From contig JAQTSY010000002.1 of assembly GCA_028711065.1 (NCBI GenBank), positions 73,779 through 137,778 of the forward strand: a DNA stretch of 64,000 bases, read 5' to 3'. The position numbers and the translations under genes were made by a program. Position 1 is the first letter of the stretch, and each line of letters begins with the position of its first letter. This DNA comes from Minisyncoccota bacterium. Lineage in GTDB: Bacteria; Patescibacteriota; Minisyncoccia; Phycocordibacterales; JAQTLZ01. The notes beneath the pieces are model-generated. The model ran no database searches. It was not told where the DNA came from and worked only from the letters and a program-made list of their open reading frames with translations. Below, in pieces: positions 34,159 through 54,355 of this stretch.

Positions 34159-34380
34159 GTTTCTCTTTCATTCAGAAAAAGAAAATCAGCCCGCTTATCG
34201 CGGGCTGATTTTTGAATTGTGGAGATGCCGGGAATCGTTCCTTACAGGAACAGTACCCCCGATGGAGATTTTTTACGTTCGATTACGAACTTAAAAATCT
34301 GCTCATCGGGGCTTCGATTCCCGCACAAAAGCGCCCCGCGCTTTCTCGTCCCACAAATTAAAAACCACCCGAAGGTGGTT

Positions 34381-34533
34381 CTTAATTTGTGGTGACATCC
34401 TAACCTTTGCGCGAACTTTTTTTGAACAACATTCCTAACGAATTCCGCCACGCGCGAGTACGCGCGTCCGCCCTCGACCCCGCCCACTCTCCATGCAAAT
34501 TTTGTTTCGCGCGGATTTCTTTTTTCGGAATGG
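34381..34533. repeat. IR-A left copy (~155 bp; ~96% identical to the reverse complement of 36958-37122), distal boundary of island 1 cargo
   Basis: Direct comparison of the two segments. It contains the internal palindrome ACCCCGCCCAC...GTGGGCGGGGT, the GC palindrome CACGCGCGAGTACGCGCGTC, and the terminal core CTTAATTTGTGG. Confidence 0.85.
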
Positions 34534-34804
34534 GTGGGCGGGGTTTTCGGGACGGACTTTTTCTTTAAGGAAAAAGTAGGCGGAATTCGAATACAATTCG
34601 GTGCCTCGTGCATCATTTTAGCATAGAAACGTCTGTTGTCTTCGGGTGTCCCTTCCGCTTCGCTCCAGAGGCCCCCTCAGACCAACAGACGTTTCTTATT
34701 TGGAGCACGAGGACTCTTGTGATATGTGCTTGCCCACCCAACCCACCGCGCACAAATTCTCGTCGTCTCCAAGAAAAATAGAGACGACTACTCCCTTGCG
34801 AACC

Positions 34805-34836
34805 TGAACGGCTCAAATGGTGGAATTGAGCTGTTA
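34805..34836. repeat. conserved hairpin motif TGAACGGCTCAaATGGTGGAATTGAGCtGTTa (second copy at 53903-53938)
   Basis: About 30/32 identity between the copies. Both sit ~200-270 bp inside the distal cargo IR of the two islands. Confidence 0.7.
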
Positions 34837-34854
34837 GGTTCGTTAGAACAATTT

Positions 34855-35352
34855 CTATTTAACAACTTTGTACACACGCCACTTTCGTCCGCCTCCCATC
34901 TCCTTTTCTGATACAAGAGAAAGATTCGGTTCACTTTTAAATACTTTGATACCTCCTCCGATTTTTTCAGGAAGTACATTTAACACAACCCTATCTATCA
35001 GATCATCTTCTAACGCAGATGTATTCAATGTGGGACCACTAGATACTAAAACGTTCGCCCCTAAAGTAAAAGCCTCTGTGGGAGAATGAGCAATGGTGTA
35101 CATTGGTTTCGATACAAAATGGACATCATCTGTAACTACAACTTTTTTAACATCTAAGTCTTCGAATTCTTTTATCATCTGTCGCGGATATTTCTGAATT
35201 GCCTCGTATGTTTTTCTTCCCGTTACAAATAAATCATGCTCTCTGCATATATCAAGAAAATCATTCCAGACAGTGTCAGGAATAAAATCCTCGTCTCCGT
35301 TTTCTCGAGCGATATACCCATCGGCAGAAACTACATTGTAGAGAGTAACCAT
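34855..35352 (-). CDS. dihydrofolate reductase-like / RibD C-terminal domain family protein
   Basis: 165 aa with the YwjB/RibD_C pattern (VSADGYIA...GRKTYE...VVLNVLP). Confidence 0.6.
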   Translation of the reverse strand: MVTLYNVVSADGYIARENGDEDFIPDTVWNDFLDICREHDLFVTGRKTYEAIQKYPRQMIKEFEDLDVKKVVVTDDVHFVSKPMYTIAHSPTEAFTLGANVLVSSGPTLNTSALEDDLIDRVVLNVLPEKIGGGIKVFKSEPNLSLVSEKEMGGGRKWRVYKVVK

Positions 35353-35364
35353 AATCTTTTGTTT

Positions 35365-35679
35365 CTATTTTAGCCTAACCAAACCAAATTTCTTCCCGTA
35401 TTTTTGTTTCATCCAAAGTCGAGCGTCTTCAATAATTTTGTCTCCATGTTTATTGTCTGGAGCGAGAACAAAGTCCACAGACCAATCTTTCTTTTTTTGT
35501 TTCGGTGTCTTAAGGATAACCAAAAAATCAACGTCCGCAGGACGTTTCTTTTTTGTTGAAAAACTACCCATAACAAACATCTCTGACACCGGCAGATGAA
35601 CATTTTTGAGAACTTTTTGAGTTTCCTTCCAAAGTTCTCTTCTGTATTTTGAATTAAGCAGTTCTTTAGGAATTTTCAT
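35365..35679 (-). CDS. minimal nucleotidyltransferase (Pol-beta superfamily; MNT-like)
   Basis: GSFSTKKKRPADVDFLV matches the GS...DxD NTase motif. 104 aa. Confidence 0.6.
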   Translation of the reverse strand: MKIPKELLNSKYRRELWKETQKVLKNVHLPVSEMFVMGSFSTKKKRPADVDFLVILKTPKQKKKDWSVDFVLAPDNKHGDKIIEDARLWMKQKYGKKFGLVRLK

Positions 35680-35708
35680 ATCAAAACTCTATAGTGTTTT
35701 TTGGTTTT

Positions 35709-36671
35709 TTAGTCAAAGAGATATTCTTTTCTTGCAGGAGCAATCAAGTACGTTTCTATTTCTTCAGGGGTCATAGATACCTTTAGTTTTTGAGACATGT
35801 CGCAGAACTTTCTTTTAAAGTCTTCTAACTTTTGACTTCTCTCCTCTTTGGACAACTTACTTGATACATCCCCCTCCCAAAAGAAAGTTGTTACTTCTCC
35901 TTGGCAGTATTTAAAAAACATAGTATTTAATCTACCTTGGTAATCTGCAGGGAAGAGTTCTGTACTTTCTGGATTCTGTAATAAAAATATAATAAGACTG
36001 TCGCGAGTTTTCGAATGTCCGCTTCCTCCCCGCGAAAAACATTCTCTAATGGCATGCAGAAAAAGTTCTCTCGCCAGATCCGGTCTTTCTATGAGAAGTT
36101 CCTTTGCTTTCTTGCGATCCCAAAGTGCGTGTTGTACGACAAAGACCTTATCTCGTAACTCTTTATTAGATTCGGGCACAGAATTCAGAGCATCTTCAGA
36201 AAAGCTTACTCTTGTTGAGTAAAGGGCCACATTTATTGCGTCTTCCAATGATTTCCCTGTATACCCGTGCAATGAACGATCCATCATTGGAAATCTAAGT
36301 CGAGAAAAGTGTTTAGATTTTTCATCTTCCTTTTTCCGCTCTATTCTTCCAGTAACATAATGGTTCGAAGTTTCTTGGGGAGAACCAATTTCGATAGAAG
36401 ACTCAAGGCCAAATCCACTATATCGCGTAGTTCCATCATCTAAAATTTCTACCGTACCTCCTTGATAAGGGATTGCTTCACCATCTGGTCTATCTGGTAA
36501 CGCTCCACCAATGATTGTTATTTGATTTGGGAATCGAACTTGCTCAATAGTTTCTTTTTTTAGTATTTGTTCTGCCTCTATATAATTTAAAGCCAGACCA
36601 GACTCCATTTTTTGCTGTAGCTTTTCCGCTTCTTCTCGAGCTTTTTCTTCAGTATATTTTTCCATAGTCAT
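35709..36671 (-). CDS. hypothetical 320-aa protein, possibly a HEPN-like partner of the adjacent NTase
   Basis: No recognisable family. It contains an R-x4-H (RELFLH) candidate HEPN motif. It is adjacent and co-directional with the MNT-like gene. Confidence 0.4.
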   Translation of the reverse strand: MTMEKYTEEKAREEAEKLQQKMESGLALNYIEAEQILKKETIEQVRFPNQITIIGGALPDRPDGEAIPYQGGTVEILDDGTTRYSGFGLESSIEIGSPQETSNHYVTGRIERKKEDEKSKHFSRLRFPMMDRSLHGYTGKSLEDAINVALYSTRVSFSEDALNSVPESNKELRDKVFVVQHALWDRKKAKELLIERPDLARELFLHAIRECFSRGGSGHSKTRDSLIIFLLQNPESTELFPADYQGRLNTMFFKYCQGEVTTFFWEGDVSSKLSKEERSQKLEDFKRKFCDMSQKLKVSMTPEEIETYLIAPARKEYLFD

Positions 36672-36677
36672 TTAATT

Positions 36678-36884
36678 TTATCTCACCAACCTGCTTTTGG
36701 AAACCCCGAGCGCATCTGCCAACTTCACAATCGTAGAAAGTGTCGTGTTAATCTTTCCATGCTCAATATTGCTTATATACCCTCGGCTCACGCCGATAAG
36801 CTCCCCAAGCTTTGCTTGGGGCATTTTCTTGGACATTCTTAGCTTTTTTAGGTTTTTGCCAAACTCCAACGCTTCCTTTTTCAT
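36678..36884 (-). CDS. XRE-family helix-turn-helix transcriptional regulator (68 aa)
   Basis: HTH_3 pattern (KLGELIGVSRGYISNIEHG). The listed ORF 36678..37010 extends artifactually into IR-A. The start was reassigned to the internal ATG. Confidence 0.75.
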   Translation of the reverse strand: MKKEALEFGKNLKKLRMSKKMPQAKLGELIGVSRGYISNIEHGKINTTLSTIVKLADALGVSKSRLVR

Positions 36885-36957
36885 TATCAACAGTATAGCA
36901 ATTGTTCTGTTTTGCAAGAATGTTATGATATATAGTAACATTCTATATCGAGCCCTC

Positions 36958-37122
36958 GACCCCGCCCACCCATTCCGAAAAAAGAAACCCGCGCGAAACA
37001 AAACCTGCATGGAGAGTGGGCGGGGTCGAGGGCGGACGCGCGTACTCGCGCGTGGCGGAATTCGTTAGGAATGTTGTTCAAAAAAAGTTCGCGCAAAGGT
37101 TAGGATGTCACCACATATTAAG
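36958..37122. repeat. IR-A right copy (inverted partner of 34381-34533)
   Basis: See IR-A left. Its terminal 12 nt CCACATATTAAG overlap the start of IR-B. Confidence 0.85.
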
Positions 37123-37225
37123 ACTTCCGATTCAGGGAGCAAAAAATTTGAGCGCGCCGAAGGCGCGCGATCTCCGGTGAACCCGCATTCCGCCCTGCGC
37201 CCGCAAGCGAATTCGGAGGGTGGGC
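37111..37225. repeat. IR-B left copy (115 bp, 100% identical to the reverse complement of 38691-38805), immediately upstream of the recombinase start
   Basis: Direct comparison. It contains the GC hairpin GAGCGCGCCGAAGGCGCGCGATC and a GAATTCGG motif. Confidence 0.9.
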
Positions 37226-37276
37226 ATGGGTGCAGAAATGAGACACATACGGATTCTCCTTTTTTCGTAATCTAAA

Positions 37277-38908
37277 ATGAACAAACCAAAATTTTTCTTA
37301 TACGCGCGAAAATCAACGGAGGACGACGATCATCAGATCATGAGTATTGAAGCGCAACTTTTTGAGCTTCGAGAATTCGCGCGTAAAGAAAATCTTGAAA
37401 TTCTGGCTGAATTTCAAGAGTCGAAAAGCGCAAAGAAACCGGGTCGTGAACTTTTTAACGAAATGATGGCCCGCATTGAAACTATGGATGGTGTCGGTAT
37501 TCTCGCATGGCATCCTGACCGACTTGCTCGCAATAGTGTGGACGGCGGACGCATCATTTACGCTGTAGACACGACCAGAATCGTTTCTTTGCGATTTCCG
37601 ACATTTTGGTTTGAACCCACTCCGCAAGGGAAATTTATGTTGCAAGTGGCGTTCGGCCAGTCCAAATATTATTCAGACAATCTCGTTGAGAATATTAACC
37701 GAGGTATCCGCCAAAAAGTGAGAAGAGGCGAATGGCTGGTGAAAGCTCCGTTTGGCTATGTGAATAATCCGAGAACGAGGAATATCGAACCTGACGCGGT
37801 GAAATCACGCATTGTGGTCGGAGCTTTCAAAGAGTACGCCACTGGCAAGCATTGTTTCGGATCACTTTCGGCATTTTTGGCGGATAGAGGTGCTGTGACG
37901 AGATACGGAACGCCACTTGCCAAAGCTTCCGTCTCGATTATGTTGTCGAACAAAGCATATCTCGGTCTGGTCAAACATCGCGGTGAATTTTTCGCCGGAA
38001 GCTTTGCGCCAATTCTTTCTCTCGACTTGTTTGAAGCCGTACAGAAGATTTTGCGAGAACGAGCAAAGCCCCGCAAAACAAAAACCGGTCACAATTTTCC
38101 TTTCACCGGACTTTTTCGTTGCGGAGAATGTGGAAGCATGATTACCGCTCAATGGTGCACCGGAGAACATGGCGGACGCTATCGCTACTATCGCTGTACG
38201 AAAAAGAAAGGAAAATGTGAACAGAAGTATTTGCGGGAGGATGCGCTCGCCTCGCAGGTGAAAGCACGGCTCAAACAAGTCGGACTTCCCGACGACTGGA
38301 CCGACTTTATGCTAAACAAAGTGCAAGATTGGGAGAAAGTGGAAAAAGTGTCGTCGGGAAGCCTTGTCGAGCGGATTAAGGAGAATGAGCGAGAGACGGA
38401 ACAAAAGCTCGGGAAGCTCGTCACTTTGTTTCTGGACGGCGATATTCCCAAAGAAAATTATCTCGCCAAGAAAAACGAGCTTTTGAAAGAAAAGGTGTCT
38501 CTCGCTCAAAAAATGGATTCCGCCCGACAAGAGAGAAAGAATTGGGTCGAACCCTTGCGAGAGTGGATTTTAGATACGAAAAAAGCCACGCAATTGGCTT
38601 CGTCCGATAATTTTGAAGAAATGCGGACATTTCTTCGCCGAGTCGGAACGAACCCAAAATTGCGGGACAAATCCGTCTCTGTCTCATTTTGCCCACCCTC
38701 CGAATTCGCTTGCGGGCGCAGGGCGGAATGCGGGTTCACCGGAGATCGCGCGCCTTCGGCGCGCTCAAATTTTTTGCTCCCTGAATCGGAAGTCTTAATA
38801 TGTGGAGACGGCGGGAATCGAACCCGCGTGCAAGAGGTTTCCTTGAATGGTTCTACAAAGGGTAGTTTATTTTTTCCGCTTTCGCGGATTTCGAACTCGT
38901 CCGTCTAG
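37277..38908 (+). CDS. large serine recombinase (resolvase/invertase catalytic domain + recombinase domain + Zn-ribbon + coiled coil). The ORF has no stop before IR-B and reads through it into the tmRNA gene; the functional C-terminus is probably near 38690
   Basis: N-terminal YARKSTEDDDHQIMSIEAQ (catalytic Ser) and C-terminal CGECG...C zinc ribbon. ~50% identity to the second recombinase at 46645-48201. Confidence 0.85.
   Translation: MNKPKFFLYARKSTEDDDHQIMSIEAQLFELREFARKENLEILAEFQESKSAKKPGRELFNEMMARIETMDGVGILAWHPDRLARNSVDGGRIIYAVDTTRIVSLRFPTFWFEPTPQGKFMLQVAFGQSKYYSDNLVENINRGIRQKVRRGEWLVKAPFGYVNNPRTRNIEPDAVKSRIVVGAFKEYATGKHCFGSLSAFLADRGAVTRYGTPLAKASVSIMLSNKAYLGLVKHRGEFFAGSFAPILSLDLFEAVQKILRERAKPRKTKTGHNFPFTGLFRCGECGSMITAQWCTGEHGGRYRYYRCTKKKGKCEQKYLREDALASQVKARLKQVGLPDDWTDFMLNKVQDWEKVEKVSSGSLVERIKENERETEQKLGKLVTLFLDGDIPKENYLAKKNELLKEKVSLAQKMDSARQERKNWVEPLREWILDTKKATQLASSDNFEEMRTFLRRVGTNPKLRDKSVSVSFCPPSEFACGRRAECGFTGDRAPSARSNFLLPESEVLICGDGGNRTRVQEVSLNGSTKGSLFFPLSRISNSSV
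38691..38805. repeat. IR-B right copy, abutting and overlapping by 5 nt the 3' end of the tmRNA gene
   Basis: See IR-B left. The terminal core CTTAATATGTGG includes tmRNA 3'-terminal nucleotides. Confidence 0.9.
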
Positions 38909-39197
38909 AATAAACAAAACCGAACGTGTTCTAGTCTCATTGGCTTTTGGCCTTCAAGTACGGCTCGAGACTGTCCATACTTTATCCCGAAAAATGACAC
39001 TTCACATTCCTCTATCGGGAAGTCGAAGAGGGAAGCGTCGCTTAGGCTATCGCGTAAGCGAAATCGTTTGCTCCAAAATATGGAGAAGCGATCTTTTGTG
39101 CAACTTTTGCAGTTGACTTTTGAAGCGGATTTAAGAGTCACTTCAGCTCTCCTTTGCACATACGAAGGGGAATCTCCTGTCTATGCCGATCATCCCC
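38803..39197 (-). ncRNA. ssrA: tmRNA (ssrA), predicted tag peptide ANDFAYAIA
   Basis: 5' end GGGGAUGAUCGGCAUAGACAGG resembles the tmRNA 5' consensus. The tRNA-like 3' end is GGUUCGAUUCCCGCCGUCUCCACA. The 5' GGGGAUG pairs with 3' CGUCUCC (two G-U pairs). The internal ORF GCA AAC GAT TTC GCT TAC GCG ATA GCC TAA begins with the characteristic AND. smpB lies immediately upstream on the same strand. Confidence 0.75.
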
Positions 39198-42376: not shown

Positions 42377-42453
42377 TGGTCCACCCTCCACGATTCGAAC
42401 GTGGGACCCCCGAGGTATAAGCTCGGTGCTCTAACCAGCTGAGCTAAGGGTGG
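42377..42453 (-). tRNA. tRNA-Ile with anticodon UAU (encoded CCA; discriminator A)
   Basis: Manual cloverleaf fold: acceptor CCACCCU/AGGGUGG, anticodon stem CCGAG/CUCGG with loop CUUAUAC, T-loop UUCGAAU. Confidence 0.7.
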
Positions 42454-46609: not shown

Positions 46610-46698
46610 GGAGACGTGTCAGAGTGGTCTAACGTACCTCTTTGCTAAAGAGGCAGGGGCTTTAAACCCCCTCGAGGGTTCGAATCCCTCCGTCTCCG
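46610..46698 (+). tRNA. tRNA-Ser (anticodon GCU), class II
   Basis: Acceptor GGAGACG/CGUCUCC, anticodon stem-loop CCUCU-UUGCUAA-AGAGG, long variable arm, T-loop UUCGAAU, discriminator G. Confidence 0.8.
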
Positions 46699-48201
46699 CA
46701 TTTGAGAGAATTCGGGTTCCGCGAAAAAAATCGGGTCGGCGCGAAGCGCCGATGTGTGGAGTGAACCCCCGCCAAAACAAAACCCGCCAAGGATTTTCCA
46801 CGCTCCGCGGGGCTCAAAAAGTACGGTTCGATCTTTGATTTCAAAGTTCGAACCGACTTTTTTCAACAAATGAAGTTTTTCTTCATTTGTTGCATCGTTT
46901 GCCAATTCCATATTGGATTTGAGCCACTGGTCCGTAAGTTCGAACCGATTATTCGCTTTTTGCTGAAATGCCGATAATTTCTCTTTGAGAAGCTGTTTAG
47001 CGTTAACCAGTGCGTTCTTGGCATCGCGATATTCTTCGAGCGACAACGCACTCTCAAGATACGCGCTCATCAGCTTCTCAATCTTGGAATCCACAAGAGA
47101 AATTTCGGCTTTCACGCTATCCGCAAAAAGCACACTCGATTGATTTTCTGATTGCCGATCTTTTTCATTCTCGGCAATCATCCACTCTAGCCAATCGAGT
47201 GGCAGAGAAACTTTTTTGATCTTCTCCTGAATTTGGGAAGTGATGAACTCCTCGCGGACATATTTTTGCAAACAAGGATTTTTCCGTTTGGTACAGCGGA
47301 GATAGTTATGACCTTTCTGGGTTTCGGTTGTGATGAAGCAACCGCATTCTCCGCAACGGAAAAATCCTCGGTATAAATATTCCTTTAGACCGCGAGCTTT
47401 CGGCTTGCTCTTTCTTTTCATCACTTCCTGGCAAGTATCAAAAAGTTTCTTTGAAATAATCGGTTCGTGCTTACCCTCGTATATTTCACCACCGAAGCGA
47501 ATCAGTCCGCAGAAAATCGGATTTTTCAGCATATTGTGAATGTCCGAAATGGAAAGTTCATGCTCCTTTCTCGTTTTCAGTCCAAGTAGAGCTGTGATGT
47601 CCCTAACTTGTCGGAGCGTATATTTGCCACTGGAGTAGGCCTCGAACGCTTTTGCAATACACGGCGCACGCTCGGCATCGGGGAAGATAGTTTTTGTCTC
47701 GGTGTCGTTCACAAATCCGAGCGGCGCATTTCGAGGCCAAATACCTTCCTTCAATTTCTGACGATGGCCGCGTTTAATATTCTCCGACAAGTTATCTACA
47801 TAGTACTTGGACTGACTAAAAGCGATTGAGAGCATGAATTTTCCTTGCGGTGTCGGATCAAACCAAAAAGTACTAAATTTCAAATCTAGAATCACTTTGG
47901 TATCAACGAGGTAGATGATTTTTCCTCCATCTACCGAGTTTCTCGCAAGTCGATCAGGATGCCATGCCAAAATACCGGACGCTTCTCCGTGTTCCATTCG
48001 TCCTATCATTTCGTTGAACACGGGACGGCCCGGTATTTTGGCTGTCTGCTTTTCGACAAAGACATCGACAATTTCAATCCGCTCTTTCAACGCTAATTCT
48101 TTCAATTCCGAAAGCTGGTCGGCAATACTGCGGACTTGTCTGTCTTTGTCGTCTGTCGACTTGCGAGTATAGATGAAGAACTTTTTGGTTTGAGAATTCA
48201 T
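46645..48201 (-). CDS. large serine recombinase (paralogue of 37277-38908). The ORF reads through IRrec into tRNA-Ser; the functional C-terminus is probably near 46816
   Basis: N-terminal YTRKSTDDKDRQVRSIADQ and C-terminal CGECG zinc ribbon. It is transcribed toward the tRNA 3' end, exactly as in island 1. Confidence 0.85.
   Translation of the reverse strand: MNSQTKKFFIYTRKSTDDKDRQVRSIADQLSELKELALKERIEIVDVFVEKQTAKIPGRPVFNEMIGRMEHGEASGILAWHPDRLARNSVDGGKIIYLVDTKVILDLKFSTFWFDPTPQGKFMLSIAFSQSKYYVDNLSENIKRGHRQKLKEGIWPRNAPLGFVNDTETKTIFPDAERAPCIAKAFEAYSSGKYTLRQVRDITALLGLKTRKEHELSISDIHNMLKNPIFCGLIRFGGEIYEGKHEPIISKKLFDTCQEVMKRKSKPKARGLKEYLYRGFFRCGECGCFITTETQKGHNYLRCTKRKNPCLQKYVREEFITSQIQEKIKKVSLPLDWLEWMIAENEKDRQSENQSSVLFADSVKAEISLVDSKIEKLMSAYLESALSLEEYRDAKNALVNAKQLLKEKLSAFQQKANNRFELTDQWLKSNMELANDATNEEKLHLLKKVGSNFEIKDRTVLFEPRGAWKILGGFCFGGGSLHTSALRADPIFFAEPEFSQMRRRRDSNPRGGLKPLPL
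46696..46815. repeat. IRrec copy a (120 bp; 119/120 identical to the reverse complement of 48220-48339), starting at the last 3 nt of tRNA-Ser
   Basis: Direct comparison. It contains GC hairpin GGCGCGAAGCGCC and GAATTCGGG. It is homologous in layout and ~60% in sequence to IR-B of island 1. Confidence 0.9.
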
Positions 48202-48219
48202 ATTTGTATTGGCAACGAC

Positions 48220-48339
48220 GAGCCCCGCGGAGCGTGGAAAATCCTTGGCGGGTTTTGTTTTGGCGGGGGTTCACTCCACATATCGGCGCTTCGCGCCGAC
48301 CCGATTTTTTTCGCGGAACCCGAATTCTCTCAAATGCGG
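48220..48339. repeat. IRrec copy b (inverted), directly upstream of the recombinase start
   Basis: See copy a. Confidence 0.9.
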
Positions 48340-48565
48340 TGTTTATTGAACGAAGTTCGAAACTATTTCGCAGAAAACCCCGATGACTGCATCTAATCGC
48401 ACGCGCCGCGTGCGTGGTGACTTGAAACTCCAAACTACGCTCCACCAATGAATTCCGCCCCAACGCCGAGGAGTACCTCGGCGTTGCCCCCACCGGAGAA
48501 ATCTCTCTTTGCTGGATTGAGTCGCGCAGGATTTTTTCAAATGGAAAAGGGATTTTCCGGTGGGG
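48337..48565. repeat. IR2 copy a (229 bp; 100% identical to the reverse complement of 54100-54328), proximal boundary of island 2 cargo
   Basis: Direct comparison. It has the internal palindrome CCCACCGGAGAAATCTC...GAGATTTCTCCGGTGGG, the GC palindrome CACGCACGCGGCGCGTGCG and GAATTCATTGG. Spurious identical ORFs are listed in both copies. Confidence 0.9.
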
Positions 48566-48629
48566 GGGTCAAACATGTTAATTATATTACACTATTGTAA
48601 AACAATGCAATGACACTTATCATCAAAAG

Positions 48630-48848
48630 ATGTCTAAACTCCCCGTTTCGAAGCAATTTGGGCAAAATCTAAAAAGACTACGCCTCAAAAAGAGCTTATC
48701 GCAGGGCGATATTTCTAGGAGACTGGACGTAGACCGCTCCTATGTAAGTAATTTGGAAAATGGTAGAATGAATCCGACACTTTCGACGATTAAAAAATTG
48801 GCGAAGGCTTTAAATACTTCAGCAGATAAGTTGCTGAAACGAGTATAA
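48630..48848 (+). CDS. XRE-family HTH transcriptional regulator (72 aa)
   Basis: HTH_3 pattern (SQGDISRRLDVDRSYVSNLENG). Its position is the same as the XRE gene of island 1, the first gene inside the cargo IR. Confidence 0.75.
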   Translation: MSKLPVSKQFGQNLKRLRLKKSLSQGDISRRLDVDRSYVSNLENGRMNPTLSTIKKLAKALNTSADKLLKRV

Positions 48849-48855
48849 ATTTATT

Positions 48856-49497
48856 ATGAAAAATTTTCTAAAAATAACTGCACCTATTCTTGTGGTTGCC
48901 CTTTGTATAATCGCATACTTCGTCTACACGATTTATTATTTGCCACAAAAACGAGCAACTGAGACTGTCCAAAAAGCAATAGATTTTGAATGTGATTTTA
49001 ATTCTGTTGCCAAAAACACAGTTCAGGAGTCATTGGGTGCTTACCACACTATTTCTTTTTCTTATCCTTCCTGTTTTAAACCAAGTACAATGCCTAACGA
49101 ACCGTACGGTTACAGACACACTTTTGACAGAGCAGATTCAACTCGAAGCTATCAACCTCCTTATCTCACTGTTGAAATAGGATTTGTCGTGCCAGATATT
49201 AGGACAGGCGGGAACAATTATGCAGTTTTCCCAAAGACTGTTCTGAAGAAAACGACTTACATGGGTATTCCTGCTGAATATGTCACATATAAAAACCCGG
49301 AGTGTTTAAGTAATTCTGCAAACTGCTCGGCGTACTCCACAGATATAATAGCTTTTCGATTAGAAAAGGATTTTGACGTTGAAAGAGCTGTAAATTCAGA
49401 CCCTGATTTTGTAATTGCTATTCATACTTCCCCAAAAGACACAAAAGATTATCTTCCTTTATTGGAAAGTGTAGTTTCGACATTAGTCATCAAATAA
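48856..49497 (+). CDS. hypothetical membrane-anchored or secreted protein
   Basis: N-terminal TM segment. No family was recognised. Confidence 0.4.
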   Translation: MKNFLKITAPILVVALCIIAYFVYTIYYLPQKRATETVQKAIDFECDFNSVAKNTVQESLGAYHTISFSYPSCFKPSTMPNEPYGYRHTFDRADSTRSYQPPYLTVEIGFVVPDIRTGGNNYAVFPKTVLKKTTYMGIPAEYVTYKNPECLSNSANCSAYSTDIIAFRLEKDFDVERAVNSDPDFVIAIHTSPKDTKDYLPLLESVVSTLVIK

Positions 49498-49498
49498 A

Positions 49499-50464
49499 AT
49501 GAAATATTTTCTTCCCATTTTAGTTGTTATCTTAATTATTGTTGGTCTTTATTATTACTACTTCAATGCTGGCCATATTGTAAGTTCATTAAAAAAAGTT
49601 GACACAGTGTCAATTCCGGCTGAGTTCATTCCAAAACAAGCGAACTGGGATGAATACCCGGGTGCAGTCAGAGGAATTTCTCCAAGTGGGAAATATGATC
49701 TTTCAATTCTGCCTCCTTCAGAGCAAAAAGATTCTCAAAATGTTTCATTTCGACTCATTGATCTAAAAAATCAATCAAAAGAAAAACAAATTGCTGTGGC
49801 TGGACTTGGACCAATACCAACCAATACAGGTTTCGACGTGGAGGTGTCTTTCCAATGGATAAATGATTCTACTGTGCTTATCTACAAACGCATGCCTTTC
49901 GCGGCTTGGTATCTGAATGTTGAAACTGGAAAGTCTCATATAATTTTCTCGGCAGAAGATGGAAGGCAGGGACTTTACAATTACAGTCAAACCGGTCAAG
50001 CTCTTTGGTATACATTGAGTGGCAAACTTCACAGATTCGACTTTCTATCTGATTCCGACACTATAATATCTGGTTATTCTGAAGCAAGTGGTACACCAAA
50101 TCAGTTGATTTTATCCAATCGAGGCGATAAATTCCTAAAAGTTGTAACTAATAGCGCATTTGTGGTTGATGCAAGTAGTGGTCAGGAAGAATTTATCTTT
50201 TCAGATCCACGTTTTCATGGAATTGAGAAACATCTATTCCAAGCATGGTCAGAAAACGACAAACGAATTAACCTGCAGTATCCTTTCGTGTACGATCTTG
50301 AACATCACAAATCCATTGATTTGAAGGATTCATATGCTGAGCTCTCAATAAATTTAGGACAGAAATGGTATGGAGATGATGCTCTCGTCGTTCACAACTC
50401 TCGAGATGGGAGTTGGTACTTATTGAATATCTTTGATAAGACATACAAAAGGATCGTGCAATAA
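49499..50464 (+). CDS. hypothetical membrane-anchored protein (possibly beta-propeller-like)
   Basis: N-terminal TM. 1-nt gap from the previous gene. Confidence 0.4.
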   Translation: MKYFLPILVVILIIVGLYYYYFNAGHIVSSLKKVDTVSIPAEFIPKQANWDEYPGAVRGISPSGKYDLSILPPSEQKDSQNVSFRLIDLKNQSKEKQIAVAGLGPIPTNTGFDVEVSFQWINDSTVLIYKRMPFAAWYLNVETGKSHIIFSAEDGRQGLYNYSQTGQALWYTLSGKLHRFDFLSDSDTIISGYSEASGTPNQLILSNRGDKFLKVVTNSAFVVDASSGQEEFIFSDPRFHGIEKHLFQAWSENDKRINLQYPFVYDLEHHKSIDLKDSYAELSINLGQKWYGDDALVVHNSRDGSWYLLNIFDKTYKRIVQ

Positions 50465-50488
50465 GTCCCAATGTGTTAATATAAAATC

Positions 50489-50713
50489 ATGTTTAGTCTT
50501 ATATTCCTAATAATTCCGATTCTATTCTCGTTTCTGCACATATATTATGCAGAAAAGGGTAGAAAAAATCCTCTAGAAGGGCAGAATAAAGCGTTTCAAG
50601 CCGCGACTGCTTTTGTTGATGTCGTACTTGCACTCTCTGTAGGGTTAATCACGTTTAGCGGCATGTTTTTTTATCACCTTATTCTTTATCCGATTCATTG
50701 TAATATGGAATAA
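50489..50713 (+). CDS. small hypothetical membrane protein (2 TM)
   Basis: ORF only. Confidence 0.3.
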   Translation: MFSLIFLIIPILFSFLHIYYAEKGRKNPLEGQNKAFQAATAFVDVVLALSVGLITFSGMFFYHLILYPIHCNME

Positions 50714-50715
50714 TC

Positions 50716-50907
50716 ATGAATTCGTCCGCAAAATTTTTTAGTGCGCTTTTAAAAGGAGTAATAATCCCCCTTGCTCTTTTTTGCGGAATTTATTGGCTTG
50801 ATAAATACACTCTTGGTATCGGCCAAATTTCTATATATGGATTCGTAGGCATTCCCGCAATTACAGTAATGATTCTTTTCTATTATTTTTTGAGGAAATC
50901 CTATTAG
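50716..50907 (+). CDS. small hypothetical membrane protein (2 TM)
   Basis: ORF only. Confidence 0.3.
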   Translation: MNSSAKFFSALLKGVIIPLALFCGIYWLDKYTLGIGQISIYGFVGIPAITVMILFYYFLRKSY

Positions 50908-50909
50908 GG

Positions 50910-51776
50910 TTAGGCTGCCAAAAGTAAGGCAAAAAGAAGAATTAAAAACACTCTAGGAATTTGTTTCCAAAGTGTTTTTTGTTTTGACAATAAAACTGGG
51001 TACAAAAAACTGATGCAATAAAGTGTCCCCGCAAGAATAATCAGGAAATTGAATGGGGTACGAATATACAATTTGGCCAGAAAGCTTAGACTTAAAAGAC
51101 CAATGATCGCAAGCGAGCTAGAGATAATAAGTATTTTCTTACTCCCAAGCAGGGACAATGGCGTTATCTTTTTATATTGAGTATCGCCTCGTACGTCTTT
51201 AAAGTCTTTCAGAAGTACTTTCGATATTCCAAGACTCAACAAAGCACCGAATAAGAGTATTGCATCCAACCTTGGTTTTGATCCTGTAGTAAGAAAAAAG
51301 CCACTCCAAAATGGAATAAAGTAATATGCAAGAATCAGCAGAAAAGTCGAAAACCAACCTTTTCTGGACAGTTGTACCTTAGGATGTGAATAAAAAATAC
51401 CAAGAAGAATAATCAGTGAAGTTCCAATTATCGATATTATCCCACTACTTATACTAGCTAGAATCGCGCAAACTGCTGAGCTGATGGCAAATACAAGAGC
51501 ATCCTTTTGAGATAATTTACCTGAAACCAGAGGTCGATTTGGCTCATTGATTCGATCAATATCTTGGTCGTAAATATCATTCATTACATTTCCAAAACTG
51601 AATGCCAAGAGAAGGCCAATACTTGCCGGAAGCCAAAGATTAAGGGAAGAATGAGATTTATTCGCCCAATAATTTCCCATATAGAAAGTCAGAAGAATAC
51701 CAGTCAATAATGCTGGCCTCATGAGCTCTATGTATGATTGCGTAATCTCACTTATTTTTCTCGATCTTAACAGCAT
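50910..51776 (-). CDS. UbiA-family aromatic/isoprenoid prenyltransferase
   Basis: NDIYDQDIDRINEPNRPL (NDxxDxxxD motif) in a 288-aa polytopic protein. Confidence 0.75.
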   Translation of the reverse strand: MLLRSRKISEITQSYIELMRPALLTGILLTFYMGNYWANKSHSSLNLWLPASIGLLLAFSFGNVMNDIYDQDIDRINEPNRPLVSGKLSQKDALVFAISSAVCAILASISSGIISIIGTSLIILLGIFYSHPKVQLSRKGWFSTFLLILAYYFIPFWSGFFLTTGSKPRLDAILLFGALLSLGISKVLLKDFKDVRGDTQYKKITPLSLLGSKKILIISSSLAIIGLLSLSFLAKLYIRTPFNFLIILAGTLYCISFLYPVLLSKQKTLWKQIPRVFLILLFALLLAA

Positions 51777-51894
51777 AAATTAGTTCTAAGTTCCATCTAA
51801 TTGCTTCTAAAACTAGAGTTATTTTCTTAGGCTATTATGACCTTTAGATTTAAGCTATAAACAAGTTGCTCCTAATTTCTTCTAATGTATTACA

Positions 51895-53319
51895 CTAAAA
51901 GTTTGCTTCATAGTAGCTATTTCGTGATTCACCTACCAAATGCAGAAGTTTCATCTCCTGCATTTTTTTAAGATCATAATTGATTGTTTGTCGAGGTACA
52001 TCCTCCATAATCTTCTCACACTCCTTTGCTGTTATTTTTTTGTTCTCGACAAGGTGATTCCAGATCATTACTTGTCTTTCGTTCAATCCACTAAGCTCAT
52101 TACCCATCAAAATGACCTTAAAACTGTTAGTCGTATTCTTGAAAATTGGTGGCAATAGTTTCCACTCTTTCATATTATTGAAAACAATATCAATTCCTCG
52201 TCCATATTCCTCAAGATAGTCTAATTCTTTTAATCTTGCTGCAATAATCTCGTTACGACTCATTTGAGCATCTTTTATATTTTCAACAGTAACCCCCGGC
52301 GGGAGACAACCCGGATTGAATATCTCAATTCGATCTTCAAAGAGATTCACTTGAGTATAGGTTTCCGTAATTTTGTAATCTCGGTGTATAACAGCATTCG
52401 CCACTATCTCTCGAATAGCTTTCTCGGGATATTCATATCTTTCAACTCTTTTTGTTCCAACTATCTTGGCACTTTTACGTATATTTCGGAGAATAAATTT
52501 CTGTATTGTCTCAATTTGAGTATCTAACGTTCCATCTACATCTACTGAATCAATAATATCTGTGGCTACGTTTGATCCTTCGTATTTAACACATCGAACA
52601 ATATATCTACTGAAATTTTGTTTATCTTGTGGTCTGTTTTTAGCAAAGATAAGAAACCCTGCCACAGTAGGAGATTTGTTGCCATCAAAATCGTCAGCTA
52701 TGCCAAGATTTTTCAGAAGCTCGAAGTTAATCTCATCTATTGACGCTTCTCTTTTTGTTCGTTTGCCGCTTTGAATTAGTAAATCAAGAACTTTTTCTTT
52801 AGATAGTTCCTCGATTGAAGTACCTTCTGCGCGCAAAGTGTCGAATTTTAGTTTTTTTGAATTTTCGATCAAACTCCGCATTTCTTCGTCTGTCATTTTT
52901 CGATCTGTATTACCATCTCGAATGCGGGCACCGTTTGGCATTCCTGCTGGTTTGTAGTAGCAAGGTTTAAACTGTTCAGGACACTCCGGAACGTATATTG
53001 CCAGAATATTTTTACCCTTTATCTCTAAAATATGGTATTCCGGTCTGATAGTTACACTCATTTCATTACTGACAACATTGCTAAAGTTTTCTTGTAGTGC
53101 AGCTATATTTTCAACCCCAATAATTTCGAATTTTTTGTTTCCGTTTTCGATAACCCCAAATGCGATAATTCCACCACCGGGCGCGTGTGAAAATGACGAG
53201 ATGCTTTCCCATGCTTTTCGTGGTACTCCGCTCCGCCCATCTTTGAATTCAACTTTTGGAGTTTCAGAGTTATGTTTTATGGCCTCCTCAATAAATTTCA
53301 TTACTTCCTTTTTTTCCAT
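51895..53319 (-). CDS. AlbA_2 (Schlafen-like) + HATPase_c_4 + C-terminal winged-helix protein (often annotated as a RecG-like putative transcriptional regulator)
   Basis: The N-terminal AlbA_2-like region and a C-terminal HTH (QTINYDLKKMQEMKLL) are typical of this architecture. Confidence 0.6.
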   Translation of the reverse strand: MEKKEVMKFIEEAIKHNSETPKVEFKDGRSGVPRKAWESISSFSHAPGGGIIAFGVIENGNKKFEIIGVENIAALQENFSNVVSNEMSVTIRPEYHILEIKGKNILAIYVPECPEQFKPCYYKPAGMPNGARIRDGNTDRKMTDEEMRSLIENSKKLKFDTLRAEGTSIEELSKEKVLDLLIQSGKRTKREASIDEINFELLKNLGIADDFDGNKSPTVAGFLIFAKNRPQDKQNFSRYIVRCVKYEGSNVATDIIDSVDVDGTLDTQIETIQKFILRNIRKSAKIVGTKRVERYEYPEKAIREIVANAVIHRDYKITETYTQVNLFEDRIEIFNPGCLPPGVTVENIKDAQMSRNEIIAARLKELDYLEEYGRGIDIVFNNMKEWKLLPPIFKNTTNSFKVILMGNELSGLNERQVMIWNHLVENKKITAKECEKIMEDVPRQTINYDLKKMQEMKLLHLVGESRNSYYEANF

Positions 53320-53412
53320 TTCTCAATTTTAGCACTTTGTTGAAACTTAAAATAGATGGAGGCAGAGTTTTAATTAAAGAAACACTTTTTCAACTCGTAC
53401 TAAAATAACCCC

Positions 53413-53808
53413 ATGCCCCCAGACGAAACCACGACTCCAGAACCTGTTGCCCCCGGCCCCGAAACGCCAGTTTCGGGCGATTCCCCAGAACCCCCAGAAA
53501 CCACCCCTCCCGAAGAATCAAGCCCCCAAGCACCCCCTGAGGCCCCAGAAGCCCCTAGAAGCGACGGTAATTTAGGAGCGGTCATGGACACAGCTCCTAA
53601 AACCGAGCCCTTTCTTTCAAGGGAGCCCGCCACGCTTCCCGAATTCGCGTGGCGGGAAATCGTGCGCGCACGGTGGGTGGGGCAAGCACATACAAAATTG
53701 AGTCTCGGGCTCCTCGGGCATTTTCCGCGACGGGCTTTTTACAATAATGAGCGCCGACCCGAACGAAGAGAAGAAACTTTGGTAGCGAAAGCGACACCAC
53801 GAACATGA
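53413..53808 (+). CDS. Pro/Glu/Thr-rich hypothetical ORF inside a ~60% GC patch (53400-54060); coding status doubtful
   Basis: ORF with a compositional anomaly. Both strands have overlapping ORFs. Confidence 0.2.
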   Translation: MPPDETTTPEPVAPGPETPVSGDSPEPPETTPPEESSPQAPPEAPEAPRSDGNLGAVMDTAPKTEPFLSREPATLPEFAWREIVRARWVGQAHTKLSLGLLGHFPRRAFYNNERRPERREETLVAKATPRT

Positions 53809-53902
53809 AGATGAAAACGAGCAAGGGGGTTGTGCGAGGGTGTGAAAACAACCCGACGCTGGGGGGAGGATTCCTTCCTCCCCCCAAAGGGAGCGTGCAT
53901 GG

Positions 53903-53938
53903 CTGAACGGCTCATATGGTGGAATTGAGCCGTTCAGC
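53903..53938. repeat. conserved hairpin motif CTGAACGGCTCATATGGTGGAATTGAGCCGTTCAGC (perfect 11-bp stem), second copy of 34805-34836
   Basis: See the first copy. Confidence 0.7.
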
Positions 53939-54099
53939 TTCTGCACGCACCAACACATCTAGGCGCGAGTAGCCCTAGCGGAAATGCCCGAGGCGGATGC
54001 CGAGTGGTGAACCCGACGGACAAGTACCACAGAAGGTCAGATATGATAAAATAAGCCCGAGATTCCGAATTGAATTCCGCCTTCCAGTTTTTACTGGAA

Positions 54100-54328
54100 C
54101 CCCACCGGAAAATCCCTTTTCCATTTGAAAAAATCCTGCGCGACTCAATCCAGCAAAGAGAGATTTCTCCGGTGGGGGCAACGCCGAGGTACTCCTCGGC
54201 GTTGGGGCGGAATTCATTGGTGGAGCGTAGTTTGGAGTTTCAAGTCACCACGCACGCGGCGCGTGCGATTAGATGCAGTCATCGGGGTTTTCTGCGAAAT
54301 AGTTTCGAACTTCGTTCAATAAACACCG
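54100..54328. repeat. IR2 copy b (inverted partner of 48337-48565), distal boundary of island 2; flanked by a 14-bp direct repeat ATATGATAAAATAA (54041-54054 and 54338-54351)
   Basis: Direct comparison. Confidence 0.9.
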
Positions 54329-54355
54329 CCGCTGTAAATATGATAAAATAATCTC

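Follow-up and report, generated by a model that had tools for sequence, protein, structure and literature searches.

The window analysed here, a 64,000-nucleotide stretch of a contig from a Minisyncoccota bacterium, contains a tmRNA gene on the minus strand (38800/38802-39197, located with ARAGORN and scoring 108 bits in Rfam), whose 3' end adjoins a compact group of genes and repeats. Next to it and on the opposite strand resides the gene of a large serine recombinase (LSR; 37277..38908, plus strand), which carries all three diagnostic Pfam domains of this class (Resolvase, Recombinase and Zn_ribbon_recom). Divergent from the recombinase gene, an XRE/C-protein-type helix-turn-helix regulator (36678..36890, minus strand; HTH_3, E 9.8e-16; PADLOC 'control protein', E 2e-15) constitutes the first gene of a cargo operon, a position and orientation that is alike in related elements. 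The regulator probably starts with the methionine at 36890, defining a protein of 70 residues, rather than at 37010. It is followed on the same strand by an open reading frame for a 320-residue protein (35709..36671), which matches neither a Pfam nor a PADLOC entry, a 104-residue DUF6932/minimal nucleotidyltransferase-like protein (35365..35679; PF22014, E 1.6e-9) with additional weak PADLOC matches to PDC-M63A and a cyclase, and a 165-residue RibD_C domain protein (34855..35352; PF01872, E 9.8e-12). This inventory of recombinase, regulator and three cargo genes agrees in the Pfam assignment with an earlier note on this DNA, with the start of the XRE gene now corrected to 36890.

The region is organized by two pairs of long inverted repeats, which had been recognized before and whose coordinates we place within 11 nt of those initially proposed. 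The arms of IR-A (34380-34544 and 36959-37123, 165 nt) are 98% and those of IR-B (37107-37226 and 38690-38809, 120 nt) 99% identical, with sharp inner ends in both cases. In a base-by-base comparison, 37111-37226 and 38690-38805 are the same at all 116 positions, while the four mismatches in IR-A comprise one within the core and three internal ones. The previously reported core of 12 nt is indeed found three times, at 34381 with a single mismatch, at 37111 in inverted orientation and at 38794, compared to 0.16 matches expected by chance and with none of 100 shuffled sequences reaching three. Its length is peculiar to the tmRNA locus, as the core shared by the three sites of other family members usually encompasses 4 nt. 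The proposal that the core contains the crossover site is supported by the pattern of mismatches among its three copies, from which the exchange would be placed inside TGTGG (38801-38805).

The central block at 36959-37226 (minus strand) combines the right arm of IR-A with the left arm of IR-B, the inverted core occupying 37111-37122. In reverse complement, it matches exactly the right end of the element joined to its left end. Read on the other strand, it proceeds from the right end (b) through the core into the left end (a), a construction that is alike in every related locus examined. This relationship identifies the site at 34381..34396 (CTTAATtTGTGGtGAC, plus strand), with the order host flank, core and arm a, as attL, the site at 38794..38809 (CTTAATaTGTGGaGAC, plus strand), with the order arm b, core and tmRNA 3' end, as attR, and the block between them as an inverted attP, which at the same time serves as divergent control region separating the XRE and the recombinase genes. 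Arm a at the left terminus (34380..34544, plus strand) provides a P'-type half-site, in which CTTTGCGCGAAC lies some 20 nt away from the crossover, followed by a duplicate of the XRE promoter/operator-like region and a hairpin. Arm b at the right terminus (38690..38809, plus strand) provides a P-type half-site with TCGGAAG at a similar distance (~20 nt) and encloses a conserved GC hairpin (38748-38764) that precedes a T-run in the sense of the recombinase gene. On the host side of attL, the B half-site (34351..34392, minus strand) is an inverted repeat with a terminator-like match, consisting of a hairpin with a 19-bp stem and a subsequent T-run in tmRNA sense, whose last 12 nt overlap with the core. 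It is the terminator that followed the tmRNA gene before the insertion. Further outward, a remnant of the tmRNA 3' end (34218..34237, minus strand), located outside of the element, forms a 20-nt direct repeat with 38801-38820 (18/20 identical) and was probably displaced by an older island with a crossover in the T-loop. An analogous truncated tRNA remnant is present in the related locus L042.

Arms a and b are thus the two termini of the element, and the internal block preserves, inverted and intact, the attP that would arise if these termini were joined. Since the internal block equals the joined ends in inverted orientation, the repeats of 165 and 120 nt are halves of one duplicated attachment site. 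The earlier note had viewed recombinase and cargo as separately bracketed units, which does not hold as both repeat pairs belong to this single internal copy. It had further suggested either a recombinase-driven invertible module or a new class of tRNA-targeting element with long terminal inverted repeats. From the latter proposal, the unusual element, which recurs in hundreds of loci of the candidate phyla radiation (CPR), stands, whereas its terminal repeats do not, since neither a nor b is an inverted repeat of the other, each being repeated instead in the internal block. As halves of one attachment site, the repeats are neither transposon ends nor two inversion switches. We consider it likely that 34381-38805 is an integrative element of 4.4 kb that was inserted by its LSR at the extreme 3' end of the tmRNA gene. 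It belongs to a large family of small mobile elements that is widespread in Patescibacteria, inserts by an LSR at tRNA and tmRNA 3' ends and is apparently undescribed, as no description of such elements was found in a search of the literature.

The family was characterized in 162 related loci from independent assemblies of Patescibacteria, among them one complete chromosome and contigs of 0.6-0.8 Mb, the longest reaching 831 kb. An inverted repeat pair surrounds the LSR gene in about 130 of them, the remainder being mostly truncated contigs, and the targets comprise 14 tRNA species and tmRNA. The layout is fixed and reads host flank, core, arm a, cargo, rc(a) and inverted core, followed by rc(b), LSR gene, arm b, core and tRNA/tmRNA. 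In the window and 17 fully bracketed loci the three sites conform to this scheme to the nucleotide, where site 1 reads flank-core-a, site 3 reads b-core-tRNA and site 2, in reverse complement, reads b-core-a. In 43 loci the distal a arm could be located, and a motif of a adjoins the left IR-B arm even where the distal arm was not found. The repeat arms are 110-430 nt long and spaced 1.4-6 kb apart, and their identity ranges from 77 to 100%, with both pairs at 98-100% in most elements. The LSR gene faces the tRNA or tmRNA directly downstream with its 3' end in at least 109 of 128 informative loci, with the opposite arrangement (tRNA upstream) found in only five, all of which may be mis-assemblies, and the XRE end of the cargo always adjoins the middle block. 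A second element of the same architecture is found in mirror orientation within the window (46696..54329, minus strand) at a tRNA-Ser(gct) gene (46610-46699). Its recombinase (46822-48183, minus strand) is 42% identical to the first, the equivalents of IR-B are located at 46696-46815 and 48220-48339 and those of IR-A at 48336-48565 and 54100-54329, the latter enclosing about 5.5 kb of cargo.

Across the family, the cargo encodes mostly methylases, defence and toxin-antitoxin genes. The 25 cargo families found most often include none for replication, transfer or capsids, and viral contigs yielded no relatives. A recombination directionality factor is not evident in these elements, and minimal members such as L003 and L019 contain no cargo genes at all. 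LSR genes that are 94-100% identical reside beside host flanks that either share only 82-92% identity or are unrelated, and a single LSR module can be found with differing cargo modules, two observations that support mobility of the element. Tandem insertions at the attR of resident elements are found in three loci (L034, L125 and L134).

The geometry of the attachment sites is consistent with the action of an LSR. The T-arm of the tmRNA is the B'-type half-site, where CGAAC begins 14 nt from the usual divergence point of the family, which is located just after TGTGG. On the tRNA side, the motif begins at +14, in the T-loop, in 61 loci, and on the side of the element at +19/+20 in arm a in 60 loci. 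This offset matches the one described for large serine integrases, where the motif recognized by the second DNA-binding domain (DBD2) is shifted in attB by 4-5 bp inward relative to attP (PMC11722253). In the P arm, CGGAA about 20 nt out appears to provide attP with its expected dyad, as read by eye in two or three sequences. The recombinase gene itself extends into the site. The alignment of the proteins shows that conservation stops at SFCPPSEFA, which coincides with the start of IR-B, whereas the open reading frame continues through arm b and the crossover towards a stop codon inside the tmRNA antisense. This frame is open through b up to the crossover in 91 of 92 loci, while the two alternative frames are open in 57 and 36 of these loci.

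In the mechanism that we propose, the LSR would recombine attP (b-core-a) with an attB whose sole conserved half is the tRNA acceptor end with the T-arm, and would recognize CGAAC in the T-loop through its outer DNA-binding domain. Strands would be exchanged in the core of about 4 nt at the discriminator/trailer position, and integration would employ the attP copy that the LSR gene carries at its 3' end. The LSR frame, reading across the site, would afterwards end in tRNA antisense and converge with the tRNA gene. The internal attP copy would remain intact as divergent XRE/LSR control region and, since it must bind the LSR at this place, autoregulation would be implied. The excised form is predicted to be a circle in which two inverted copies of attP separate the cargo and the LSR segments. 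Against this mechanism, such a circle was not found, and its junction and the internal copy are indistinguishable by sequence. A pattern search for the empty tmRNA site, which the earlier note had proposed to look for in relatives, gave no match. The lack of an evident directionality factor is a further point against this model. With two identical attP copies, the circle should be able to use either one for integration and generate two arrangements, of which only one is seen, so that selection or a different intermediate would be required. Conservative site-specific recombination accounts neither for the 98-100% identity of both repeat pairs that most elements show nor for duplicated arms of 110-430 nt, when an LSR requires only about 25 bp per half-site.

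These properties would be accommodated if the transferred form were single-stranded DNA, entering for example via the competence machinery that is common in CPR, where the internal block pairs with both termini. The sole double-stranded part of the folded strand would be a complete attP, acting as splint for trimming, ligating or priming as well as substrate or landing site of the recombinase. The self-complementary part is, exact to the nucleotide, the attachment site with its 110-430 nt on each side, and arms that are far longer than needed by the LSR and mostly 98-100% identical would be expected if pairing or copying from arm to arm matters. The minimal elements L003 and L019 retain the a arms as a hairpin with a loop of 100-130 nt, from which the cargo looks like an expanded loop, and the described absence of replication, transfer and capsid genes and of viral relatives would fit as well. 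We nevertheless regard this scenario as unlikely. Serine recombinases cut both strands of two duplexes, a folded single strand recombining with attB would yield hairpin-capped chromosome ends, and expression of the recombinase requires the complementary strand. Moreover, the uptake of either strand again predicts both orientations, and some non-identical arms are mixtures of two lineage variants rather than products of decay (L043 and L134 compared to L041 and L049). Less likely still appear two nested modules, an IS-like rc(b)-LSR-b unit with P-type ends and a non-autonomous a-cargo-rc(a) cassette with P'-type ends, each moved or exchanged separately by the LSR, as in cassette exchange. In favour, L041 and L043 share the LSR module and only about 30 nt of a, with unrelated cargo and different inner a arms, L073 is a lone LSR module between two tRNA-Leu genes, and chains of modules are found in L034, L042 and L065. 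However, sequence of a lies beside the LSR module in essentially every locus, including those without cargo, and the cores at the module ends are inverted, whereas direct cores would be expected after integration of a circle whose junction is palindromic. L073, with arms that are only 94% identical, and other exceptions could be repeat-mediated assembly chimeras, and homologous recombination between tandem elements can also swap modules.

We attach even less weight to invertible switches, by which the LSR would flip its own gene between the arms of IR-B and the cargo between those of IR-A. The recombinase gene hin is located within its own invertible segment, and in the C segment of phage P1 the crossover sites lie at the outer edges of long repeats. 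Inverted cores are found at both ends of each segment and contigs often break at the repeats, but such breaks are expected anyway since repeats of 115-140 nt approach the k-mer length of assemblers. The essentially fixed orientation and the invariable position of the XRE gene described above argue against inversion, and the protein is a large integrase-type recombinase and not a small invertase. Finally, near-perfect repeats of a length close to this k-mer size might raise suspicion that a repeat was collapsed or wrongly joined, or that an inverted chimera was formed. Such an assembly artefact, which the earlier note had named as an explanation of the repeat identity that would undo its reading, has a negligible probability and is excluded by the recurrence of the layout in about 130 loci that stem from numerous projects and assemblers, inside of long contigs and the complete chromosome, by the variable repeat identity, by unique host flanks on both sides and by the two independent copies within the window.

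The proposed integrative element can be compared to several known systems. With the elements of phiC31, Bxb1, A118/LI and SPbeta it shares a three-domain recombinase, which is distantly related to SPbeta integrase structures, an attP exceeding attB in length, a displacement of the outer DNA-binding motif, here by 5-6 bp (PMC11722253), a short common core and hybrid attL and attR sites after integration. Unlike in these systems, the last nucleotides of tRNA/tmRNA genes are targeted, only one attB half-site is conserved, the recombinase frame spans the crossover, a gene for a directionality factor is not evident and the integrated element retains a second attP, inverted and intact, in which the identity extends over 110-430 nt to either side. 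The ssrA islands of Dehalococcoides are likewise carried by a serine recombinase, DsiB, to the tmRNA gene, with the attachment sequence inside the integrase gene and tandem accretion at the site (PMC3146451). They differ by a crossover in the T-loop that leaves direct repeats of 20 bp and by an integration module of six genes including a second small recombinase, and neither inverted repeats nor an internal attP are reported, the term 'inverted repeat' occurring 0 times in the text (PMC3146451). Islander-type islands also insert at tDNA 3' ends and leave the gene intact, with the crossover segment directly repeated at the distal end and accessory and defence cargo, but they employ tyrosine integrases almost exclusively and generate longer tDNA repeats, compared to a serine recombinase and a repeat of about 4 nt in our case (PMC4383910).

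With its two inverted sites in long repeats and two unique segments, one of which encodes the recombinase, the predicted excised circle resembles the yeast 2-micron plasmid with its FLP/FRT system. The latter is a replicon, where a tyrosine recombinase inverts segments to amplify the copy number, whereas we find a serine integrase and see neither replication genes nor inversion isomers, and serine integrases are not known to recombine attP with attP. As mere resemblance, two inverted copies on the same strand could pair into a double-stranded recombination site as in CTXphi attP and integron attC, which are substrates of tyrosine recombinases exchanging a single pair of strands and whose arms of tens of nucleotides are close together, unlike the arms of 110-430 nt separated by 1.4-6 kb and the serine recombinase described here. 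The placement of a recombinase gene (Hin) or a segment with long repeats (P1 C) between inverted crossover sites is finally reminiscent of the Hin/Gin/Cin systems, where small serine invertases act with an enhancer and both orientations coexist, whereas in the present family the orientation is fixed and the enzyme is of the integrase type.

The two pairs of long inverted repeats at the tmRNA described in the earlier note were recovered with re-measured coordinates in element 1 (34381-38805). IR-A (34380-34544 and 36959-37123) extends over 165 nt with 98% identity and IR-B (37107-37226 and 38690-38809) over 120 nt with 99% identity, both with sharp inner ends. In IR-B, the segments 37111-37226 and 38690-38805 are identical at 116 of 116 positions and the sole mismatch (37110/38806) is located just beyond the core. 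Mismatches in IR-A comprise one in the core (34387) and three internal ones. Three copies of the 12-nt core are present at a tolerance of one mismatch, compared to 0.16 expected, and those at 34381 and 38794 are direct repeats. If arm a (34393-34544) is defined as the sequence running rightward from the core at the left terminus and arm b (38690-38793) as the one running rightward toward the core at the right terminus, site 1 at 34381 has the order host flank, core, a, site 3 at 38794 the order b, core, tmRNA, and the reverse complement of the middle block J2 (36959-37226), termed J2rc, the order b, core, a. J2 thus carries the sequence that results from joining the two ends of the element, in inverted orientation, which defines it as an intact inverted attP, site 1 as attL and site 3 as attR. 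IR-A and IR-B are one feature. The terminus a has no relation to the terminus b, and both find their inverted partner in the internal block, at odds with the long terminal inverted repeats proposed as one option in the earlier note. An assembly artefact, considered in the earlier note as possible origin of the repeats, is excluded by independent assemblies, unique flanks, repeat identities ranging from 77% to 100% and the presence of two copies in the window.

The three cores read CTTAATxTGTGGyGAC, where the variable positions x and y are T and T in site 1, A and T in J2rc, and A and A in site 3. This two-position difference is the pattern that an exchange inside TGTGG would produce; the assignment of the core as crossover site therefore holds, with the mismatches bracketing the exchange to TGTGG, which encompasses the last two acceptor-stem bases of the tmRNA, its discriminator and two trailer bases. 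The longer core found in the window reflects the likeness of the end of arm b to the native tmRNA trailer. An interpretation of the 13-nt core as sign of an insertion into the arm of an older element was rejected because the left flank (34351-34392) is a terminator hairpin abutting the core, with a 19-bp stem followed by a T-run in the sense of the tmRNA. On the same side, outside the element, 20 nt of the tmRNA 3′ end are found a second time (34218-34237, 18/20 identical), 4.58 kb from the gene, followed after ~70 nt by a T-arm-like sequence in opposite orientation (34307-34324). Judged from their sequence, the two together suggest an older island with a crossover in the T-loop, of which only ~150 nt are left.

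The only recombinase of element 1 is of the serine type. The gene of this large serine recombinase (LSR, 37277-38908, + strand) encodes Resolvase, Recombinase and Zn_ribbon_recom domains, which correspond to a catalytic domain (PF00239, E 5.8e-22, residues 7-153) with a YARKST motif that is unvarying across 13 homologues, a DBD1 Recombinase domain (PF07508, E 2e-9) and a DBD2 zinc ribbon (PF13408, E 1.5e-12). A heptad-like, charged stretch at residues ~345-440 is conserved in our LSR protein alignment. The tmRNA (38800/38802-39197, - strand) is intact and scores 108 bits. The cargo genes, all on the - strand, code for an XRE/C-protein-type regulator (probably 36678-36890), a 320-aa protein matching no Pfam or PADLOC family, a DUF6932 nucleotidyltransferase-like protein and a RibD_C protein. 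The DUF6932 minimal nucleotidyltransferase and the adjacent 320-aa orphan (35365-36671), with the XRE regulator over both, look like a toxin-antitoxin or defence module. Arm a holds short GC-rich palindromes (CACCACGCG...CGCGTGGTG), which are often paired (34440-34475 and 37030-37060; also 48395-48420 of the window and the related loci L013, L029 and L052). In sequence, they resemble C-protein/XRE operators and, being part of arm a, they are therefore present a second time, inverted, where the cargo operon ends on its other side. Upstream of the LSR, a 56-codon ORF (37105-37275) starts at the inverted core, spans the whole left IR-B arm and stops one base short of the LSR ATG; the homologue P0012 has its recombinase fused to the corresponding frame. 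A simple promoter scan remained at background level (8 matches vs 6.9 expected) and exact-protein look-ups for the LSR, SmpB and FtsH gave no match. For a DUF4382 neighbour, the only matches were two short Logan contigs (SRR22315508, SRR22315509), which both end at the palindromic terminator at 34211-34213 and are thus uninformative on the island.

More than 7,000 database relatives of the LSR were detected at E 1e-20 or better, the nearest with 75% identity. Conservation of the protein ends at SFCPPxEFA, the exact start of IR-B, past which the tails of the LSRs read into tRNA T-arm sequence ('GNRT'). From 559 relatives in a scan of species-representative genomes, 80 loci were retrieved, all from Patescibacteria MAGs and including the complete chromosome CP060229.1 and contigs of 0.6-0.8 Mb; a metagenome scan contributed a further 80 loci. 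The layout of 162 loci was surveyed by self-BLAST and ARAGORN. An inverted repeat pair flanks the LSR gene in 130 of them, the remainder being mostly contigs truncated within the gene. The IR-B-type arms have a median length of 131 nt, the unique LSR segment spans 1.39-1.64 kb, and the right arm terminates 3-8 nt inside the 3′ end of an opposite-strand tRNA or tmRNA. A second repeat pair (arms of 41-368 nt), which abuts the first and encloses 0.1-6.4 kb, is found in 43 loci with enough upstream sequence, and the three-junction rule of the window is obeyed in all 18 fully bracketed loci that were inspected by eye. In loci where no distal arm was detected, the a sequence is still found beside the LSR module. 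The direct core and the regenerated 3′ end also recur at the tRNA and tmRNA loci of the relatives. The proposal of a tRNA-targeting element is thus borne out, with an intact tmRNA in the window and the same pattern at 14 tRNA species and tmRNA (named targets: Glu, Ala, Ser, Pro, Arg, Lys, Leu, Gly, Gln, Ile, Trp, Tyr, the 'tRNA-Stop' of ARAGORN and tmRNA). In the minimal elements L003 and L019, a hairpin of the a arms with a loop of 100-130 nt replaces the cargo and there is no cargo gene. In L138 (6330-6480), a rearranged variant, the outer part of the internal block appears inverted compared to the usual arrangement and forward core-a abuts the inner part of the reverse-complemented b. Three homologues on contigs of ~4.35 kb, considered as candidate circles, proved to be ordinary chromosomal fragments. 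A scan of viral contigs detected no relatives, and the element is thus not a recognisable phage. The reconstructed empty tmRNA site (...GAAGGTGGTTCTTAATTTGTGGAGACGGCGGG) had no match in the metagenome scan.

The geometry of the half-sites, with distances counted from the point of divergence between site 3 and J2rc, is serine-integrase-like. On the tRNA side, a CGAAC-type motif begins at +14 in 61 loci, where it constitutes the T-loop; in arm a it begins at +19/+20 in 60 loci, where it is part of the conserved CTTTGCGCGAAC. In serine integrases, the motif read by the outer DNA-binding domain is located 5 bp (4 bp in SPbeta) further inward in attB than in attP (PMC11722253), and the family displays this shift of the DBD2 motif with an offset of 5-6 bp. 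In arm b, a TCCGA (outward CGGAA) at ~20 nt from the divergence point, identified by eye in two or three sequences, would provide attP with its expected dyad. The sequence common to all three sites usually comprises 4 nt (GTGA, GTGG, GCGG, GTGC or GTCG; range 4-13 nt). The flank of attL on the host side is not conserved and in many cases is a terminator, hence recognition appears to be limited to the tRNA half of attB, which fits the insertion of other elements into the attR of residents (L034, L125, L134).

Of 92 loci, 91 have an LSR frame that stays open throughout b as far as the crossover, compared to 57 and 36 for the other two frames. The stop codon is thus always supplied by sequence beyond the site, namely by tRNA-antisense sequence in the integrated element; in the joined form, as predicted, the stop would be located ~40-46 nt into a. 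A hairpin of variable sequence is found in arm b, with typical stems of 7-10 bp (6-7 bp in shuffles) and a usual distance of 30-45 nt between its end and the outer end of b. Of 108 loci, 28 show a T-run behind this hairpin in the sense of the LSR and four in the sense of the tRNA. In the window, a terminator-like hairpin with T-run resides in the open LSR tail (38748-38764) and is mirrored at 37168-37152. LSR transcripts ending at 38748-38764 would lack a stop codon and thus be tmRNA substrates.

As in invertible DNA, inverted crossover sites do flank segments of the element. Nevertheless, the invertible module suggested as one reading in the earlier note conflicts with the fixed orientation, found in at least 109 canonical loci vs five alternative ones, and with the constant orientation of the cargo. 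An opposite-strand tRNA is located directly downstream of the LSR in at least 109 of the 128 loci with sequence in this region and T-arm-like sequence in four more, several of the remaining loci being tmRNAs missed by ARAGORN or tandem elements. Only in L031, L073, L082, L136 and L146 is a tRNA placed upstream of the LSR and in the same direction, and three of these loci are on contigs ending inside or just past the LSR gene. In L082 (1186-3300), a tRNA-Ile is located upstream and an intact b-core-a junction downstream, and the two arms are unlike (Ile-type and Glu-type). In L073 (9783-11607), the recombinase module is found in inverted orientation between two different tRNA-Leu genes, which are touched by its 94% identical arms. 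All five could be mis-traversals of repeats or chimeras of related elements; L073 and L082 are each either a chimera of the assembly or the product of a rare recombination via the internal copy of attP. The XRE gene is found at the J2 end of the cargo, divergent from the LSR, in every pair of elements sharing it. No cargo flips were detected between close relatives, and 'opposite' matches concern different internal genes of distant cargos. Contigs often end ~50 nt past the left IR-B arm. This is explained by the 115-140 nt inverted repeat breaking the de Bruijn graph and does not call for heterogeneity of the population.

The elements have spread horizontally, as LSR genes with 94-97% identity adjoin host flanks without detectable similarity; in L050 and L142 the LSRs are 100% and the host flanks 82-92% identical. 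L041 and L043 have the LSR module, the tRNA and ~30 nt of a in common, the latter presumably the P′ half-site, and their cargo and inner a arms are unrelated. The comparison defines a two-part arm a, with a recombinase-specific end and a cargo-specific regulatory part. A lower repeat identity may be read as an age clock, akin to LTRs. This reading is only partly valid, as some of the unequal arms combine variants from two lineages (L043 and L134 compared to L041 and L049), a pattern that homologous recombination between tandem elements would produce. In 121 cargo ORFs from 36 elements, the commonest Pfam families are XRE-type HTH proteins, N6/N4 and D12 DNA methylases, AAA_15/AAA_21 ATPases, LexA-like repressors, HNH nucleases and a SocA/Panacea antitoxin, whereas no replication, relaxase or capsid families are among the 25 most frequent of the 96 families matched. 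The elements are small, non-replicative and non-conjugative carriers of restriction-modification, defence and toxin-antitoxin genes. No candidate for a conserved directionality factor (RDF) was found, the sole conserved cargo gene being the XRE-type HTH.

A second element with the same double-inverted-repeat architecture occupies 46610-54329, including its target tRNA-Ser(gct), in mirror orientation. Its recombinase LSR2 (46822-48183, - strand) is 42% identical to the first LSR. The first repeat pair is located at 46696-46815 and 48220-48339 and the second at 48336-48565 and 54100-54329, the latter enclosing ~5.5 kb. The junction rule is the same, with ...CAAATGCGG continuing into TGTTTATTGAACGAAGTTCGAAAC as b2-core-a2. 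LSR2 belongs to a second subfamily (N-terminus MNNQTKKFFIYTRKST...), which is also found beside elements of the first family in L034, L042 and L065. ARAGORN places a tRNA-Ser(ACT) divergent from the tRNA-Ser(GCT) and a tRNA-Ile(TAT) in the window (46389-46476 and 42377-42453), and the GCT/ACT pair of tRNA-Ser genes recurs in L042.

We propose that the LSR would recombine b-core-a with the tRNA 3′ end, presumably using the attP copy at the 3′ end of its own gene. Insertion would leave the LSR convergent with the tRNA gene and thereby possibly silenced. J2 would stay behind as divergent control region of XRE and LSR and would have to bind the LSR. The excised circle, as predicted from the integrated sequence, would hold two inverted attP copies. 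Two equivalent copies should give two arrangements, of which one alone is seen, and conservative recombination does not explain the 98-100% identity of arms of 110-430 nt in most elements. Integration from circles with palindromic junctions (P joined to P, P′ joined to P′) was rejected because it would result in direct cores where inverted cores are observed. It is conceivable, though in our view improbable, that the internal inverted attP serves as built-in splint, with a single-stranded copy of the element, for example one imported by natural transformation, folding back so that its ends meet on a double-stranded attP. This fold-back would account for the long homogenised arms and the absence of replication, transfer and excision genes, and the complementarity of the arms is present within element 1, but the process is mechanistically awkward for a serine recombinase. 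We keep it open in view of the single arrangement, the identical long arms, the lack of an evident directionality factor and the cargo-less L003 and L019. If true, this would be the first case of a serine-recombinase element that requires a folded single-stranded intermediate in its life cycle.

CPR/Patescibacteria have tiny genomes with few recognised mobile elements. Since the family is found in hundreds of CPR genomes with frequent methylase, defence ATPase and toxin-antitoxin cargo, it probably serves as a principal carrier of the accessory genes of these bacteria. The family also offers a large natural set of serine integrases that, judged from their sites, would read the universal tRNA T-arm, with matched attP/attB pairs for 14 tRNA species and tmRNA readable from genomes and useful for integrase engineering. 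In the literature searched, we found no description of this CPR family or of an integrated element keeping an inverted intact attP, a design thus undescribed for any integrase system, which raises questions concerning directionality without RDF, autoregulation and a possible single-stranded stage. As the junction of the circle would be identical to the internal copy, the usual excision tests based on junction reads are blind to these elements, whose repeats also break short-read assemblies beside tRNA genes.

Among known systems, islands of the Islander type share the direct core and the regenerated gene end with the element but employ a tyrosine instead of a serine integrase. The nearest described serine recombinase at a tmRNA is DsiB of the Dehalococcoides ssrA islands, which contain a DsiA/ParB/Mom integration module and show a crossover in the T-loop, 20-bp direct repeats and no inverted repeats (PMC3146451). 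In contrast, the crossover described here is located at the discriminator and trailer with a 4-nt core, and the DsiA/ParB/Mom module is absent. Invertases such as Hin, Gin and Cin, with ~190 aa and a C-terminal HTH, are much unlike the LSR with its ~480 conserved residues and integrase-type domains. Transposons and IS elements have mutually inverted termini and a target-site duplication, whereas here only the direct core of 4-13 nt is common to the target. The predicted circle, with two inverted repeats containing the recombinase site and two unique segments, is 2-micron-like, but unlike in this replicon there are no replication genes among the 25 most frequent cargo families and no inversion isomers were seen. 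The folded single-stranded sites of CTXphi attP and integron attC can be likened to the element by the complementarity of its sequence alone. The resemblance to 2-micron, Hin, P1 Cin, CTXphi and attC is geometric only, and full membership applies to none of these groups. Its enzyme and site geometry place the element among the serine-integrase elements, where it represents an undescribed architecture, highly conserved and abundant within a radiation of bacteria that has received little study.
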